Virus record (IMG/VR): IMGVR_UViG_3300048999_000166
Coordinates: 58,430-122,429 of that record
DNA length: 64,000 bases
Source: a virus
Direction: 5' to 3' (one strand)
The notes beneath the pieces are model-generated. The model made no database searches. It saw only the letters and a program-made list of their open reading frames with translations, and had not been told where the DNA came from. Made by a program: the position numbers and the translations under genes. Of this stretch, positions 624 through 9,129 are shown one piece after another. Every line of letters begins with the position of its first letter. Position 1 is the stretch's first letter.

Positions 624-2459
624 ATGGCAACTCCAGCCGCGACCTTCTGCAATATTGGAGTCGGAGCCGGGAAGTCTAACTATCAGCTGGACTACAGCAC
701 GGCCACTGGCGCTGGGATTACCACCGCGACTCCCTCCACGCTGGCCAGCTCCACCGGTATCAGTAGCATTATGTATTCCTCTACTGACGGCAGCGCGATG
801 ATGCTGCGCTCGGACGTGGACGTCGATGTGATCGCCACCAACGGCTACCCGCGTTCGGAGTTCCGGGAGCGTCAGCAGGATGGTTCAACGCTGCGCGCGT
901 TCACCCCGACCAGCGGAGATCACTGGGCCGAGGTGTGGGAGTGTCCCACGCACCTGCCTCCGATCAAGCCCTCCTACGTCATGCTGCAGATGCACGACAA
1001 CAACGACGACATCATCGAGATCGCGTTGCAGCGGCGGACGGACTTCGCCACCACCGGCCTGTTGGAAATCGTCGCTCGGGTTAATGGCTCCAGTCAGGTC
1101 CAGATCGGCGTGGATGGCGGCGGTAACCCGGTCTACTACACCTGGCCGAAGCTGGTGACCACACACGTGTGGGGCACCTGGTACCGACTCAAGATCTACG
1201 TGGGAGCCATCCACTCGGGATCCACGGGATATGAGATCAGCTGTAATTCAGTGACCGTCAAGAATACTGACAACGTGAACATGCCAGCTATGAACACTTC
1301 GGGGGCGAACAGTTACTTCAAATGTGGTATGTATTTGCAAACGAAGTGGACTGGGAGTGGTACCCTAGGTCTAGAGACAGATCGAAATGAATACGGAGAG
1401 GCCGCGTTCCGCGATTTCCGTACTCATCACAATGGAGAAACCGACACTTCGATACAGACACGCGGAACAGATACGCCCGATACGGTCTCTAGCGTGGTGT
1501 GGGGAGCTAAGGCATCTGGTCACCAGACTACCCCACTGTCGTCGGGAGGTACCGGAATTACGCTTACTCCCGCGCTCCCCACTGGACTTGTCCTCGGAGA
1601 TATGGTGTTCTGCATTACTAGGACTAGTCGAGGTATCAATACCACTAGCGCTACGGCTGCCACCTCGGAAGCTCCCGGGCCACCTACCGCTCCATCGACG
1701 CCGAGCATCACCACTGGGTGGACAAAGCTGATCAGCACTCATATGCCTTTTGCGGCGGGGGACACCAATAGTGCGTATCCTGGTAGCCCCAATCTCCAAG
1801 CTCATACGATTCGGTGGCTACTGTTCGGTAAGCCCTGGGTATCGGGGGATACCGCTCCCACTGTGACATACGCGGCTGGTAATACTCTTACGGACACCAT
1901 GACCGCGCACGTGTTTAAGTGTTCCGGGTCTAAATACTCTACAGTGTTCGCGGAGGTAATTGATCAACCACCCAATGGCCTCGATCTGTCCAATCCGGCG
2001 GACAACAACAACACGATCACCGGCATCAACTATGCAGCCGCGACTAGCACGACCGTGCTCGGCCCCACTGCTGCCCTGGCCAGTAACGCCGAGGCAGGCT
2101 CGCTGGCCATCGCATGTGTCTACCACGAGACCAACACGACCAACACGACTATTGGCGTGGTGACCGGTGGATCGGATGGCCTAACGTGGGCCGCGGGGGG
2201 CGTCTCGAACACTACTACGGTGACACCGGCTAGCGGGTCCGGGGCGGAGTGCGATGAACCGGCCTTCGCGCACGACTGGGCTATCGTCCCCTCCAACGCT
2301 GGACAGGCCATCCCGGCCAAGCAGGCCGCAGCGACGATCAGTGGTGACGCGAACAAGCCCTCTACATCGCTCACCACCCCAGGCAGTGGGTGGGGCGTCC
2401 TGTTCACGATCGCGGCAGCTAGGAACCGCCGTAAGTGGATGCGGGCGGCGAGTTACTAG
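624..2459 (+). CDS. Virion-associated polysaccharide lyase family 7 (alginate lyase-like) domain protein, putative depolymerase/receptor-binding protein
   Basis: PL7 signature motifs RSEFRE, QMH (QIH-like) and YFKCGMYLQ (YFKAGxYxQ-like) in the N-terminal half; Thr/Gly-rich C-terminal half; RBS ggggga before ATG 624; follows the tail gene. Confidence 0.7.
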   Translation: MATPAATFCNIGVGAGKSNYQLDYSTATGAGITTATPSTLASSTGISSIMYSSTDGSAMMLRSDVDVDVIATNGYPRSEFRERQQDGSTLRAFTPTSGDHWAEVWECPTHLPPIKPSYVMLQMHDNNDDIIEIALQRRTDFATTGLLEIVARVNGSSQVQIGVDGGGNPVYYTWPKLVTTHVWGTWYRLKIYVGAIHSGSTGYEISCNSVTVKNTDNVNMPAMNTSGANSYFKCGMYLQTKWTGSGTLGLETDRNEYGEAAFRDFRTHHNGETDTSIQTRGTDTPDTVSSVVWGAKASGHQTTPLSSGGTGITLTPALPTGLVLGDMVFCITRTSRGINTTSATAATSEAPGPPTAPSTPSITTGWTKLISTHMPFAAGDTNSAYPGSPNLQAHTIRWLLFGKPWVSGDTAPTVTYAAGNTLTDTMTAHVFKCSGSKYSTVFAEVIDQPPNGLDLSNPADNNNTITGINYAAATSTTVLGPTAALASNAEAGSLAIACVYHETNTTNTTIGVVTGGSDGLTWAAGGVSNTTTVTPASGSGAECDEPAFAHDWAIVPSNAGQAIPAKQAAATISGDANKPSTSLTTPGSGWGVLFTIAAARNRRKWMRAASY

Positions 2460-3142
2460 TCCGACTCTATCCACGTGGCCTGTCGTGCGTTCGGGAACAT
2501 CGATTCGCTCAAGGGTTCCGTCACGAAGAACCCCGCGATAGAGATCCGGTTGGCCCCCTCTACCTTCGTCACGAAGTGCAACGCGTCCGCCGCCATGAAC
2601 ACCAGCCGATTGGGCTTGGGGAAGATGAACAACCCATGCCCCGGTGACAACGCGCGCCGCGCCTCCTCTCGATCGTCGAGCCACGGAAGGATGTCTCCGC
2701 AGGACGGGGTATCGCGATCGAGGACGCAGAGGATGCCTCCCCAGTGCGGGCGCCACTCCGGGTGCGCGAAGTAGATGTACGACCCGGCCCCGCCTGGCTC
2801 GTCCGCGTGCAGGGAGAGACCGCTACCTGGCGGGTACACCCACGGAGCGAAGTTGACGAACTCATGATCGTCCACCACCGTCTTGAGTAGCTCGTGTTCG
2901 TGGGCGGACCCGACAAGCGTGCAGAACCGATCGAGCACGCGCGGTCCGGGCATCGGAGCGCGTTGTCCCGTCAAGGGGAAGCCATCGTGCGGACGCCACA
3001 CCTTCGACACGGTCGTCACATGGACATTCTGGAAGGTGCTGGAGCTGATCCAGTTGAACAGCTGGGAAGCGTAGTCGGCGTCGAACACGTCGTCGAAGAC
3101 CGCGACCTTGTCGGTGAGCAGCGCGGGCTTATCGAAGTCCAT
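2456..3142 (-). CDS. 2OG-Fe(II) oxygenase (prolyl-4-hydroxylase-like)
   Basis: HAD (HxD) motif, W..HWGG.L, distal H (ALHFV) and R.SIAGF. Confidence 0.85.
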   Translation of the reverse strand: MDFDKPALLTDKVAVFDDVFDADYASQLFNWISSSTFQNVHVTTVSKVWRPHDGFPLTGQRAPMPGPRVLDRFCTLVGSAHEHELLKTVVDDHEFVNFAPWVYPPGSGLSLHADEPGGAGSYIYFAHPEWRPHWGGILCVLDRDTPSCGDILPWLDDREEARRALSPGHGLFIFPKPNRLVFMAADALHFVTKVEGANRISIAGFFVTEPLSESMFPNARQATWIESD

Positions 3143-5902: not shown

Positions 5903-5913
5903 CCCGTGTAGGG

Positions 5914-5978
5914 GATGGGCATGTGAGCGACAACCGGTTCAAGTGAGAGTTGTGTTAACCGACTGTCTCCGGCCCATC
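5914..5978 (-). ncRNA. Y RNA-like unit 2 (minimal, no tRNA-like domain)
   Basis: GATGGGC/GCCCATC stem, CCGG, TCGGTTAAC, CCGG, CATG. Confidence 0.7.
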
Positions 5979-5999
5979 TTCACTATAGAATTGTATTGC

Positions 6000-6221: not shown

Positions 6222-6352
6222 GGATGGGCATGGAGTTCGACGACCGGTACGGAGGCCTAGGGGTGGGAGTCGAACCCACGCCTCGGGACCGGAGTCCCGC
6301 GTGCTCCCGGACTGCACTACCCCAGAGGTAACCGACTGCCTTCGGCCCATCC
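6222..6352 (-). ncRNA. Y RNA-like unit 5 carrying a complete non-permuted tRNA cloverleaf (6256-6326)
   Basis: Scaffold motifs plus acceptor TCTGGGG/CCCTAGG, D arm GTGC/GCAC, anticodon arm with 6-nt loop CTCCGG, T arm GTGGG-TTCGACT-CCCAC. Confidence 0.8.
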
Positions 6353-6496: not shown

Positions 6497-6508
6497 AATA
6501 TTGAGTTA

Positions 6509-6588
6509 TAGGAGCCCGGACTCGCATCCCATCGGTGTTAGTTCCTCCGCCCGGGCGGAGAGGCACCGTGTGCCTGGGGCTAGTCCTA
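6509..6588 (-). ncRNA. Atypical multi-hairpin RNA inside the array, lacking the Y scaffold motifs
   Basis: TAGGA..AGCCC/GGGCT.CCTA outer stem, AGGCAC/GTGCCT and CTCCGC/GCGGAG hairpins. Confidence 0.35.
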
Positions 6589-6592
6589 GGTA

Positions 6593-6704
6593 GAACGGAC
6601 ATGGTGAGCAGCACCGGAGTGCGGACTCGAACCGCTCGAAACTCAGGTGTTATCCCTCGTCTCCGTCAGCCAGATGCGATAACCGATACTCGTCCGGCCC
6701 GTTC
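6593..6704 (-). ncRNA. Y RNA-like unit 7 (T arm near 3' side)
   Basis: GAACGGGC/GTCCGTTC stem, TCGGTTATC, T arm GCGG-TTCGAGT-CCGC, CCGG, CATG. Confidence 0.75.
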
Positions 6705-6725
6705 CTAATATGAAATTGTTTAGTT

Positions 6726-6825: not shown

Positions 6826-6834
6826 TCATTAGGC

Positions 6835-6971
6835 GGATGGGCATGTTTGTGGCTGCCGGAAAAATTTCTATTGCTCTACCAACTGAGCTACGCTCCCACG
6901 CGAGTGAAAACGACTGGACTCGAACCAGCGACCCACAGATTATTGGTTAACCGACGACCGCCGGCCCATCC
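6835..6971 (-). ncRNA. YrlA-type Y RNA unit 9 (permuted tRNA)
   Basis: T arm GCTGG-TTCGAGT-CCAGT, acceptor hairpin CGTTTTCAC/GTGGGAGCG, canonical D arm TAGCTCAGTTGGTAGAGC. Confidence 0.85.
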
Positions 6972-6988
6972 TCACTATTGAGTTAGAC

Positions 6989-7179: not shown

Positions 7180-7713
7180 CTAAAACTGCAGCTCAGGCAC
7201 ACCTTCCAGCTCGATGCCGTAGCGTCGGTAGACCTTGACCGTGTTCTCCCCGGTGAGGTCCGTTTCGGAGTACCCGAGCAGCCCCGCGACGCGGATCACC
7301 TCCGCCTTCGTCGGCGCCTCGATCTCGGCGTAGGGCGGAATGCCCGGCCAGTGGTCCACCTCGACGCTGGCGCTGCCTACTAGATAGCTGGTGCGACGAT
7401 TCTCCTGGTAGGCCTTCGCCCGGAACCCCATCATCGTGAGCATCGTGTTGGTGCCCTCGAAGTCACTGACCTCGATCTCGATCTCGTGAGTACCGTCGAT
7501 GCCATCGTGCAGGATGTGCTTGACGGTGAGGGTGGCGTTCCCACCGTCGTCGCGCAGCCGGATCCACCGTGAAGGATCGTCGCGCGCGATGTCGTAGACG
7601 TAGCGGCGCATCAAGCGCGTATCCCCGAACCGGTAGCCCCCGTTGTCGTGGATCTTCCGCTCGAACGCGTCCGGGTCGATGTTCAGGATCTTGGCTTCAT
7701 GCTCGATTGGCAT
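7180..7713 (-). CDS. CYTH/triphosphate-tunnel metalloenzyme (class IV adenylate cyclase-like)
   Basis: N-terminal EHEAK (ExExK), WIRLR, LTVK, EIEIEV, YQENRRT, EVDHWP..PPYAEIEA. Confidence 0.88.
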   Translation of the reverse strand: MPIEHEAKILNIDPDAFERKIHDNGGYRFGDTRLMRRYVYDIARDDPSRWIRLRDDGGNATLTVKHILHDGIDGTHEIEIEVSDFEGTNTMLTMMGFRAKAYQENRRTSYLVGSASVEVDHWPGIPPYAEIEAPTKAEVIRVAGLLGYSETDLTGENTVKVYRRYGIELEGVPELQF

Positions 7714-7742
7714 GATGGTGCTCCTTCGGCTGAGGTTCGTAC

Positions 7743-8807
7743 CTATGCTACCGCTAGGGCGCTGGCTTCGGTGGTGCGCAGCCCGACGATCTCGTCGGGC
7801 AGTGAGCTGGCCAGGAACTCCTCCAGCGGCAGGCAGAGGTCCATCCGCTGAATGCACACCCCGACCTGGTAGGTGCCCACCCGGTCGACGTAGAGCCGGA
7901 CCCCGTAGAAGCCCTCCTGGCAGTCCTTGTCGTTGTTGAACCGGCAGCTCGCGCACGTCTCCGGCAGTCGCACCGGCCGGATCTCCTTGAAGTAGACGGT
8001 GCGCCCGTCGGGCAGCTCGTAGCTGGTGCGCGCGCCCGACACCCCAGCGGTTACGTAGTGGGCCCGCGCGACGGCCCCACGCTCGGCGAGGATGGCCTCG
8101 ATCGCCTCGATGGAGATCGCCCCGTGGTCGAGGGAGTTGAGCAACCGCACGGACAGCTGGGGCGAGTACTCGTCCAGTAGCCGGTGTACCCGGGCGGCGT
8201 GGCTGTGGTCGAGCACCACGATGTTGGCGTCCGCCCGCACCCCGTGCGCCTCGCAGGTAGCGATCGACTCCTTCAGCGCCGCGATCTTGCGCTCCGCCAG
8301 CTCGACGTTACGGAAGCGGGTGTGCTGCACCTCCGCCAGCTCCGCCGCCGTCGTGCCGAAGACCGAGAAGTTGACCTTACGCAGCCCAGCGGAGGCAGCA
8401 GCCGGGATGACCGCCGCACCCCGCTCCCCATTCGAGGTCATCCGCACCCCGTAGCCGGCGTCGGACGCGAGCTGGGTCAGCTGCGCCAGCGATGGATGCA
8501 GCGTGGGCTCACCGCCGGTGAAGTGCACCTCCGACAGATCGAGCGCCTCGCGCAGCGAGGTGAGAGCTTCGGTGAAGCGCTCGTCGGGCCGCACCACTCC
8601 GGGCAGGAACGTGGCGCCATTGGTGGCCGCGTAGATGGACATCCGGCCGCTCGGACCGGCGGTGGTGAAGTCGCCCACGGGGCGCCGACGGTTGTCGGCG
8701 ACGACCGGGGTTCCTTCGTTGTGGCAGAACGTGCAGGTGAACCCGCACGGATCGTGGATCTTGATACGGAGAGTGGCGTCCTTCTCGACGATGGTGGGCA
8801 AGTCCAT
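7743..8807 (-). CDS. Radical SAM protein, MoaA-like
   Basis: LRIKIHDP-CGFTCTFC-HNEG, FTGGEPTL, TSNG, C-terminal CASC-x7-C cluster; RBS AGGA before ATG 8807. Confidence 0.88.
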   Translation of the reverse strand: MDLPTIVEKDATLRIKIHDPCGFTCTFCHNEGTPVVADNRRRPVGDFTTAGPSGRMSIYAATNGATFLPGVVRPDERFTEALTSLREALDLSEVHFTGGEPTLHPSLAQLTQLASDAGYGVRMTSNGERGAAVIPAAASAGLRKVNFSVFGTTAAELAEVQHTRFRNVELAERKIAALKESIATCEAHGVRADANIVVLDHSHAARVHRLLDEYSPQLSVRLLNSLDHGAISIEAIEAILAERGAVARAHYVTAGVSGARTSYELPDGRTVYFKEIRPVRLPETCASCRFNNDKDCQEGFYGVRLYVDRVGTYQVGVCIQRMDLCLPLEEFLASSLPDEIVGLRTTEASALAVA

Positions 8808-8847
8808 GGCTGGGATCCTTTGATCGGTTGATGTGCTGCAGCGCGAA

Positions 8848-8878
8848 GCAACCCCCCGAGCTGTGCTCAGGGGGTTGC
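8848..8878 (-). terminator. Terminator-like hairpin downstream of whiB
   Basis: 13-bp stem GCAACCCCCTGAG/CTCGGGGGGTTGC (G.U on the minus strand). Confidence 0.55.
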
Positions 8879-8889
8879 TCGCCGGGGCG

Positions 8890-9129
8890 CTAGGCGGCTG
8901 TCCGCTCCAGTCGAAGCAGCCGGCGCCCATCCGCGGTCACGCCACCCCAGATGCCGACGTCGATGCCCTCATCAAGGGCCATCGAGAGGCACTCTTCGCG
9001 CACCGGGCATGCCGAGCAGACCGCCAGGGCTTCCTGGGCGAACTCGGGCTTGGTGGACACCGGGAAGAAGATCTCCGGGTCGACGCCGGTACGGCAGCTG
9101 GCGCGGTGACGCCAGTCAAAGGTGGTCAT
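8890..9129 (-). CDS. whiB: WhiB-family Fe-S transcriptional regulator
   Basis: W...ASC, PEIFFP, CxxCPV.xEC, GIWGG motifs. Confidence 0.95.
   Translation of the reverse strand: MTTFDWRHRASCRTGVDPEIFFPVSTKPEFAQEALAVCSACPVREECLSMALDEGIDVGIWGGVTADGRRLLRLERTAA

Follow-up and report, generated by a model that had tools for sequence, protein, structure and literature searches.

A complete tRNA cloverleaf nested in a phage Y-RNA scaffold and attached through its acceptor end

In this study, a 64-kb window constituting the second half of an uncultured IMG/VR virus genome (122,429 bp, 64.8% GC, with 127-bp direct terminal repeats) was analyzed, and the sixth of ten tandem Y-RNA units beside a phage rsr gene, unit F, was found to hold a complete tRNA cloverleaf in its natural order with the Y stem on the acceptor end. 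YrlA is the widespread tRNA-mimicking design of Y RNAs and Yrn1 is the second described one; to our knowledge, Yrn1 is the only Y RNA described in the acceptor-end orientation, is confined to Deinococcus, and bears a tRNA likeness that is considered weak. While tRNA-mimicking Y RNAs and, through Yrn1, the orientation itself were already known, a complete tRNA in the Yrn1 orientation is new here. By analogy with Yrn1, unit F may well be a Y RNA that serves as a Ro60 tether or gate with a non-decoding, tRNA-shaped handle, a reading to which we give about even chances.

Genomic setting and scaffold of unit F

The rsr gene adjoins the Y-RNA array immediately on its downstream side, both being on the minus strand (Table 1), and the ten paralogues are probably co-transcribed with this phage Ro60 gene. 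Since the closest cultured relatives of the Rsr protein were the Ro-like proteins of Gordonia and Mycobacterium phages (51–55% identity), the host of the phage is probably an actinobacterium.

The units share a scaffold with the consensus ...GGGCC-G-R-N-GUCGGUUAYC in the 5′ strand, which is followed by the payload and then by the 3′ strand CCGG-N-CAUGCCC.... Nine of the ten units were found by both strand motifs and were aligned for covariation, unit J being missed by the 3′ motif. Among these nine paralogues, the basal stems co-varied (GAUGGGC/GCCCAUC, GACAGGC/GCCUGUC, AACGGGC/GUCCGUU, CGCGGGC/GUCCGCG, and CAGCGGGC/GCCCGCUG), and so did the upper stems (GUCGG/CCGGC, AUCGG/CCGGU, and AUCAG/CUGGU). 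With their long end-to-end stem, bulged helix, and GNCGAAN0-1G motif, the array units are, judged from sequence, of Y-RNA architecture. Their payloads differ: A, B, and E are arranged as YrlA is, with T arm, acceptor hairpin, and D arm; G and I each form a short hairpin; and D, which has a counterpart in another locus (L020), bears its T arm next to the 3′ strand. The YrlA model RF02553 matched units B and E, the former with 34 bits, and gave no match on unit F at E<=10.

Unit F retains the scaffold in full, its flanks reading GGAUGGGC-C-GAAGGCAGUCGGUUACC on the 5′ side and CCGGUCGUCGAACUCCAUGCCCAUCC on the 3′ side, and the basal helix GGAUGGGC/GCCCAUCC occurs unchanged in units B and I. As is general for Y RNAs, the two ends of the unit form a long stem, here supported by covariation. 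As in YrlA, the GNCGAAN0-1G motif stands near the 5′ end (GCCGAAG) and rsr lies within 4 kb, its start being 455 nt downstream of unit F on the same strand. Between the scaffold strands lies a payload of 81 nt, in which the tRNA starts two nt past the GGUUA of the 5′ strand, and the CCGG of the 3′ strand starts eight nt past the discriminator.

Table 1. Coordinates of the rsr locus and of the elements of unit F within the window
Feature	Position	Strand	Basis
rsr / Ro60 gene	5767-4103	minus	TROVE PF05731 1e-44, Ro60 vWA PF25045 1.9e-51 (Pfam); full-length protein
Array of ten tandem Y-RNA units A-J	7128-5797	minus	Shared scaffold; unit F is the sixth
Unit F, whole Y RNA with nested tRNA, 131 nt	6352-6222	minus	Sequence, scaffold motifs on both sides, collinear with RF01053 model 1-126
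Basal Ro-binding stem, 5′ strand GGAUGGGC, then bulged C at 6344	6352-6345	minus	Pairs with 6229-6222; helix co-varies in nine aligned units
GCCGAAG, exact match to the bacterial Y-RNA motif GNCGAAN0-1G	6346-6340	minus	Read from sequence; motif defined in PMC4201824
Upper Y stem, 5′ strand GUCGG, then conserved UUAC junction	6336-6332	minus	Pairs with CCGGU 6247-6243; co-varies in units C, D, H
tRNA-like cloverleaf, 72 nt, natural order, discriminator C	6326-6255	minus	RF00005, ARAGORN, cloverleaf energy equal to MFE
Anticodon-position arm, predicted 6-bp stem and UCCG tetraloop (6293-6290)	6299-6284	minus	RNAfold
Upper Y stem, 3′ strand CCGGU	6247-6243	minus	Covariation alignment
Basal Ro-binding stem, 3′ strand GCCCAUCC, CAU before it	6229-6222	minus	Covariation alignment

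The nested cloverleaf and its anticodon-position arm

The Rfam tRNA model RF00005 matched the cloverleaf with 47 bits against a gathering threshold of 29 (E 6.6e-7 for the 64-kb window), spanning the full model from position 1 to 71. The elements follow one another as acceptor, D arm, anticodon arm, variable loop, T arm, acceptor, and discriminator. A 7-bp acceptor stem, UCUGGGG (6326-6320)/CCCUAGG (6262-6256), is combined with U8 and A9, the D arm GUGC-AGUCCGGGA-GCAC, the anticodon arm CGGGA-CUCCGG-UCCCG with six nt between the strands of its 5-bp stem, the variable loop AGGC, and the T arm GUGGG-UUCGACU-CCCAC. In addition, all nucleotides of the tertiary contacts were present (U8, A14, G15/C48, G18, G19, A21, U54, U55, C56, and A58). 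Because the tRNA sits between intact GGUUA and CCGG strands, its nesting in the Y scaffold was regarded as real. The discriminator is not followed by CCA (the sequence reads C-CUCCG), and both ends of the tRNA run on into the Y stem. The initial annotation had described a complete, non-permuted cloverleaf within a Y scaffold, with ends that continue into the scaffold rather than ending in CCA; the coordinates, the arms, the model score, and both flanks bore this out.

ARAGORN reported a tRNA-??? at 6326-6254 with the two-letter anticodon (cc), which is its notation for a 6-nt loop. The loop is thus one nt short, as had been observed at the outset: where a canonical decoding tRNA has a 7-nt loop with U33 and a purine at position 37, unit F has the six nt CUCCGG. 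An assembly artefact, in which a one-base deletion turned an ordinary 7-nt loop into one of six, might be considered for an uncultured viral genome assembled from a metagenome. However, a loop of 7 nt would leave the tRNA just as nested in its complete Y scaffold, and the remaining array reads cleanly; we hold such an artefact to be very improbable.

RNAfold predicted that C32 and G37 pair with each other and thereby close the loop to a UNCG-type tetraloop, C(UCCG)G, which is among the most stable tetraloops. With this pair, the energy of the cloverleaf changed from −27.8 to −32.6 kcal/mol, a gain of 4.8 kcal/mol, as compared with an unconstrained MFE of −32.8 kcal/mol. The anticodon arm of unit F is thus predicted to be sealed and to display no anticodon, and the RNA would be unable to decode because the tetraloop seals this arm. 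The earlier proposal that an anticodon-like loop is displayed conflicts with this prediction, the sealed form being 4.8 kcal/mol better than the open one. As for the whole unit, its MFE favoured an alternative pairing by 6 kcal/mol, and the folding z-scores of unit F against shuffles were not significant.

Among 644 phage tRNAs, those of the Met type came out closest to the tRNA body in a global alignment (top score 24; mean 7.6, standard deviation 4.3), and blastn agreed. The designation "Arg(CCG)-like" given in the initial annotation holds for the letters of the loop but fails for the tRNA body. Arg(CCG) ancestry was rejected, since the body is nearest to Met-type tRNAs and has no A20, and CCG comes from the loop letters alone. 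Loops of 6 or 8 nt were also found without a Y scaffold in about 1.6% of the ARAGORN tRNAs in phage loci; the notion that 6-nt loops are specific to Y-embedded tRNAs was rejected on account of these scaffold-free tRNA-like genes, and the odd loop by itself is thus no evidence of Y function.

Comparison with known Y RNAs and search for relatives

Yrn1 of D. radiodurans was treated by Chen et al. in 2000, 2013, and 2014 and is represented by the Rfam family RF01053. Its orientation is opposite to that of YrlA: a stem-loop (stem of 5 bp, loop of 6 nt) takes the anticodon position between the T arm and a D-like region, a V arm is lacking, and a D arm is not evident; BLAST with Yrn1 gave no orthologues (Chen et al. 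2014, PMC4201824). This precedent for the opposite orientation (PMC4201824) was missing from the interpretation in the initial annotation.

Unit F displays the Yrn1 layout, having both strands of the bulged helix, a T arm next to the 3′ strand, and a 5-bp stem with a 6-nt loop. It was the only one of the ten units matched by RF01053, collinearly over model positions 1-126 (UGGGCCGAAG...CGGUUAC...GGGUUCGAnUCCC...CCG...CGA...GCCCA). The score was 19 bits against a gathering threshold of 80 (E 0.26 for 161 nt and 2.9 for 1.8 kb), and the whole-genome run with RF01053 gave no match; by the curated test, unit F is thus not a member of the Yrn1 family, its 19 bits standing against the 80-bit cut-off. 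Both RNAs lie upstream of rsr on the same strand and keep the strands of the metazoan-like bulged Ro-binding helix. In Yrn1, a D arm is not evident, a variable loop is absent, and the acceptor position holds only a short helix; unit F, a textbook cloverleaf whose acceptor stem has 7 bp, is by far the more complete tRNA. It resides in a phage as one of ten units, whereas Yrn1 resides in Deinococcus as one of two or more. By this analogy, unit F would work like Yrn1, albeit without curated family membership.

YrlA (RF02553), found in S. Typhimurium, M. smegmatis, and mycobacteriophages, resembles unit F in its tRNA-mimic effector module, its GNCGAAN0-1G motif, and its vicinity to rsr. In YrlA, the acceptor stem is closed, the Ro stem is located where the anticodon stem would stand, and no anticodon loop exists (PMC4201824; Wang 2018, bioRxiv 10.1101/312249). 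Its order is T arm, closed acceptor hairpin, and D arm, the Ro stem standing in for the anticodon stem, whereas unit F runs from acceptor through D arm, anticodon arm, V loop, and T arm back to acceptor and bears the Ro stem on the acceptor end; the initial annotation was thus right in calling the topology opposite to that of YrlA. As for phages, Yrl1 and Yrl2 of the Thermus phage phiLo bind the phage Ro60 and, together with Ro60, the host PNPase (PMC12135203). Like the array containing unit F, these phage Y-like RNAs lie upstream of a phage Ro60 gene; unlike it, they are two RNAs rather than ten, with no tRNA-like module reported for either (PMC12135203). A 2026 preprint on tRNA mimics did not cover Y scaffolds.

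To search for relatives, about 165 Rsr-linked loci were collected, 85 from viral contigs and 80 from metagenomes, and examined with ARAGORN and the scaffold motifs; no orthologue of unit F was found among them. The closest Rsr proteins were 59–60% identical, and their arrays comprised 3 to 8 units with no nested tRNA. Likewise, all matches of unit F in a blastn search of 50,697 phage records were generic ones to T arms or tRNAs. The pattern TCGGTTACC...GTAGYNCA gave 70 matches, all by chance; T loop...CCGG...CATGCC gave 90, only the Myrnavirus units described below being real; and T loop...CCGG...CACGCC gave 100, only known units of loci L020 and L021 being real. The pattern CGGTTAYC...TAGNNCA...GGTTCRA gave seven matches on viral contigs, none of them real, and on genome contigs none was real among the listed matches that were fetched. 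The scaffold of unit F (AGGAUGGGCC...GGUUACCUCU...) resembled scaffolds that carry YrlA-order payloads in loci L010 and L022.

A census of 130 distinct scaffold-verified units comprised 60 in YrlA order, 41 short ones, 20 without a T arm, and nine in tRNA order, defined as a T arm adjoining the 3′ strand. The last group includes units D and F of the window and units in L020, L021, L329, and L339. In the L021 unit, GAAA caps the stem at the anticodon position, so that a sealed stem at this place was seen twice. With nine of the 130 verified units in tRNA order, attachment at the acceptor end is a recurrent minority design.

One of the pattern scans also uncovered Y-scaffolded RNAs in tRNA order within the tRNA arrays of Myrnavirus mycobacteriophages. 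Like unit F, these have complete Y scaffolds around an anticodon arm and a T arm in tRNA order; they lie in a tRNA array about 36 kb from rsr, whereas the array of unit F adjoins rsr. Gene 161 of Myrna is annotated as tRNA Sup TTA, and its homologues as tRNA-Ser in Phabba and as tRNA-Sup(cta) in ScoobyDoobyDoo (gene 159). Its layout, predicted as the RNAfold MFE fold (z = −3.0 for Myrna), consists of the Y 5′ strand, a closed acceptor hairpin, D arm, anticodon arm, V loop, T arm, and the Y 3′ strand. The acceptor hairpin has 7 bp by inspection and 8 bp in the MFE fold, and its loop in Myrna holds N-CCA. In contrast to unit F, this hairpin is closed, with the Y stem joining at the boundary of T stem and acceptor. 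Among the three homologues, compensatory changes were found in the Y upper stem (GUCGG/CCGGC to AUCGG/CCGGU) and in the anticodon stem (CCACC/GGUGG to CCGCC/GGCGG). Their loops varied in sequence and length (CUUUAA, ACUAUG, and CUUGAUC; six nt in two of the three), against an unchanged D arm, V loop, and T arm.

In Myrna gene 163, annotated as tRNA-Met, the Y stem replaces the acceptor stem, as in Yrn1 and unit F, and is followed by a small hairpin, an anticodon arm, and a T arm. Unlike unit F, it has neither acceptor nor D arm, and it keeps a 7-nt CAU loop of canonical sequence (CUCAUAA), the arm and loop being identical in Phabba. Beyond generic tRNA and scaffold motifs, no sequence homology was found between the Myrnavirus RNAs and unit F; these RNAs are analogues of unit F rather than homologues. 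Their sequences imply that whole or nearly whole tRNAs on putative Ro-binding stems are maintained in cultured phages.

These comparisons bear on whether unit F is a neutral chimera or a decaying tRNA, in which a Met-like phage tRNA recombined into the loop of a short Y unit and lost a loop nucleotide. Such an origin accords with the uniqueness of unit F, for which neither the Rsr-linked loci nor four pattern scans yielded an orthologue, with the suitable loop offered by the short units G and I, and with the incidence of 6- and 8-nt loops outside scaffolds noted above. However, all four stems and the tertiary nucleotides are intact, the sole departure lies in the loop, and the conversion of a Met-type CUCAUAA into CUCCGG needs several changes, not one deletion. 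Moreover, L021 offers a second capped stem, and Yrn1 and two Myrnavirus units likewise have loops of 6 nt. Simple decay is disfavoured because the tRNA core is perfect and the lesion yields an especially stable tetraloop, and we consider this origin unlikely.

The initial annotation had proposed a decoy for an anticodon nuclease. In such a case, the Ro-tethered tRNA body would soak up an anticodon nuclease or another tRNA-directed defence protein, or deliver it to degradation. The anticodon arm would indeed be exposed at the end far from Ro60, the anticodon loop is the only hypervariable part of the Myrnavirus gene-161 RNAs, and Myrna gene 163 displays its canonical loop, conserved in Phabba, on a Y stem. 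In unit F, however, the loop is predicted to be closed, so that a nuclease would find no 7-nt loop with U33 and R37, the related array in L021 has its GAAA-capped stem at the same position, and a scan of the eight neighbouring ORFs revealed neither an anticodon nuclease nor a repair gene. A decoy is thus quite improbable for unit F and the most weakly supported of its readings, and the idea fits Myrna gene 163 better.

Proposed role of unit F and its meaning for Ro60

As a Y RNA of the Yrn1 type, unit F would bind Ro60 through its two ends, which pair into the conserved bulged helix. The proposal of the initial annotation that Ro60 is tethered through the acceptor end fits this layout, in which the Y stem stands on the acceptor end. 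The place of the payload would be taken by a whole tRNA body, joined to the Ro stem via the open end of its 7-bp acceptor stem, and the part presented would be an L-shaped body with elbow, D/T core, and capped long arm. By analogy with Yrn1, this tRNA-shaped end would most likely form a nuclease-resistant effector-binding module that tethers Ro60 to a partner, much as the module of YrlA would, and also help to gate the Ro60 cavity. The host PNPase offers a precedent for such a partner in Deinococcus, Salmonella, and the Thermus phage phiLo (PMC4201824; bioRxiv 10.1101/312249; PMC12135203). From the anatomy described above we infer Ro60 binding, the stability of the RNA in one piece, the tethering, and the partner.

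The main rival to a one-piece Y RNA is a processing cassette, in which RNase P would cut 5′ of U6326 and RNase Z or exonucleases would trim after C6255 to release a free, non-decoding tRNA-like RNA, perhaps CCA-tailed, leaving the Y strands as a nicked duplex or to be degraded. A 7-bp acceptor stem and a canonical T arm are the main determinants of RNase P cleavage; unit F has both, and in the scaffold model its acceptor stem is flanked by unpaired nucleotides, UUACC on the 5′ side and CCUCCGUA on the 3′ side. Such a stem with unpaired flanks predicts RNase P cleavage, which counts against a one-piece RNA. In M. smegmatis YrlA, the one YrlA whose acceptor stem likewise has 7 bp, both RNase P cleavage and CCA tailing occur in vivo (PMC4201824); in D. 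radiodurans, Y RNAs and tRNAs are co-transcribed and processed together (PMC4201824), and in the Gordonia phage Forza they are interleaved. On the other hand, RNase P did not cleave Yrn1 (PMC4201824), CCA is not encoded after the discriminator of unit F, and a sealed-arm RNA, once released, would have no evident use. Furthermore, release alone would need neither a complete scaffold nor a basal helix identical to that of units B and I. Taken together, we assign processing a low but appreciable probability.

If unit F is instead the one-piece Y RNA preferred here, Ro60 would be held at the acceptor end of the L, while in units A, B, and E it would be held at the anticodon end. Since one phage array holds both orientations, it offers a natural test of which side of the tRNA shape Ro60 function depends on. 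The Myrnavirus RNAs are directly testable, as they are carried by cultured M. smegmatis phages, and their annotation as suppressor, Ser, and Met tRNAs matters for censuses of phage tRNAs.

In a broader and, in our estimation, unlikely scenario, actinobacteriophages would use the Ro stem as a universal socket for whole or partial tRNAs in at least three topologies. The point of attachment would be the anticodon end in units of YrlA order, the acceptor end in unit F, Yrn1, and Myrna gene 163, and the junction of T arm and acceptor in Myrna gene 161. In that case, unit F would form a stable chimera of Ro60 and a tRNA body that docks the phage Ro60, and via Ro60 the host PNPase or another nuclease, onto a host factor; candidates recognising the tRNA elbow or long arm would be a tRNA-directed defence protein and a tRNA-modifying or tRNA-processing enzyme.

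Unit F supports the view that Yrn1-type modules are tRNA-derived, and its topology places acceptor-end attachment beyond Deinococcus, in phages. If the socket scenario were true, Ro60 would be a programmable, tRNA-guided trap for RNA or protein during infection.

Type of the scaffold and surroundings of the array

As summarized in the table, units I and B of the Y-RNA array each gave a full-length but sub-threshold match (24-26 bits) to RF01656, the nematode stem-bulge/Y-like RNA family. In addition, unit F, which encloses a whole tRNA cloverleaf, has a 5' strand (GGGCCGAAGGCAGUCGGUUACC) presumably similar to the 5' end of Y RNAs in vertebrates. If this likeness holds, the phage scaffold would belong to the two-strand type of metazoa and Deinococcus, not to the Salmonella type.

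Unit D resembled unit F in that its T arm adjoins the 3' scaffold strand, but unlike unit F it possessed no recognisable D or acceptor arm. Since a counterpart was present in locus L020, unit D is conserved between phages whose Rsr (Ro60) proteins are 58% identical. The 85-nt spacer between units D and E was predicted to fold into three GC-rich hairpins (-33.8 kcal/mol). Directly upstream of the array and on the same strand lie the radical SAM and CYTH-domain genes, while rsr is followed by tRNA-Met and tRNA-Trp genes, with a 2OG-Fe(II) oxygenase gene downstream of both tRNAs.

Features discussed in this part (L-numbers denote fetched phage or metagenome loci, numbered locally; other positions refer to the window)
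Feature	Position	Strand	Remark
Unit I	5912-5981	-	RF01656 match
Unit B	6834-6973	-	RF01656 match
Unit D	6590-6707	-	T arm GCGG-UUCGAGU-CCGC
Unit D counterpart	L020:3250-3348		matching T arm and layout
D-E spacer	6508-6592	-	not a Y scaffold
Radical SAM (395 aa) and CYTH-domain (258 aa) proteins	7180-8930	-	
2OG-Fe(II) oxygenase gene	2456-3142		
Y-scaffolded tRNA, Myrna	L259:604-738 (NC_011273 94667-94801)		annotated tRNA-OTHER/Sup(TTA)
Y-scaffolded tRNA, Phabba	L260:604-740		annotated tRNA-Ser
Y-scaffolded tRNA, ScoobyDoobyDoo	L258:600-736		annotated tRNA-Sup(cta)
Second Y scaffold, Myrna gene 163	L259:824-928		annotated 'tRNA-Met'
Second Y scaffold, Phabba	L260:820-940		unannotated
Four Y units, Gordonia phage Forza (NC_070763)	L164:5900-6540		two short, two YrlA-order
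False ARAGORN calls (Arg-tct, Ile-gat)	L009:2579-2653, L010:3613-3687, L029:3359-3436, L051:2660-2733		
Odd-loop tRNA calls without Y scaffold	L180:7618-7690, L221:5439-5511, L251:1192-1262		
Further such calls	L217 (two sites), L174, L183, L202		

Y-scaffolded tRNAs of Myrnaviruses

The Y-scaffolded tRNAs of the mycobacteriophages Myrna, Phabba, and ScoobyDoobyDoo share one layout, in which the Y stem leads into a closed acceptor hairpin, followed by the D and anticodon arms, the V loop, and the T arm; their stem changes are compensatory. The anticodon loops measure 6, 7, and 6 nt in Myrna, Phabba, and ScoobyDoobyDoo, respectively, the remainder being conserved, and in Myrna the acceptor stem is capped by the loop G-CCA-ACCUU, in which a discriminator is followed by CCA.

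In the second scaffold of Myrna (gene 163) and Phabba, the Y stem takes the place of the acceptor stem, and a T arm is carried together with an identical anticodon arm having the canonical loop CUCAUAA; a small hairpin is present in Myrna and absent from Phabba. Neither is likely to be a decoding tRNA-Met.

Misread tRNA annotations and odd anticodon loops

The Forza Y units, located downstream of Ro, are interspersed with true tRNAs and the tmRNA, and gene 161 of this phage, annotated as a 68-nt 'tRNA-Gln', in fact consists of a Y unit's 5' scaffold strand and T arm. In units of YrlA order (T arm, closed acceptor hairpin, D arm), the false Arg-tct and Ile-gat calls of ARAGORN cover the V hairpin and T arm together with the Y 5' strand. 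Such calls are a systematic pitfall in annotating phages that encode Ro.

Anticodon loops of 6 or 8 nt occurred in 12 of the 733 ARAGORN tRNAs (about 1.6%) from the fetched phage loci, a count including unit F and the Myrna calls. Some of the scaffold-free cases resemble tetraloop-capped stems, such as CCGCC-ACAC-GGCGG. Phage tRNA arrays may more widely contain non-decoding tRNA-like genes.
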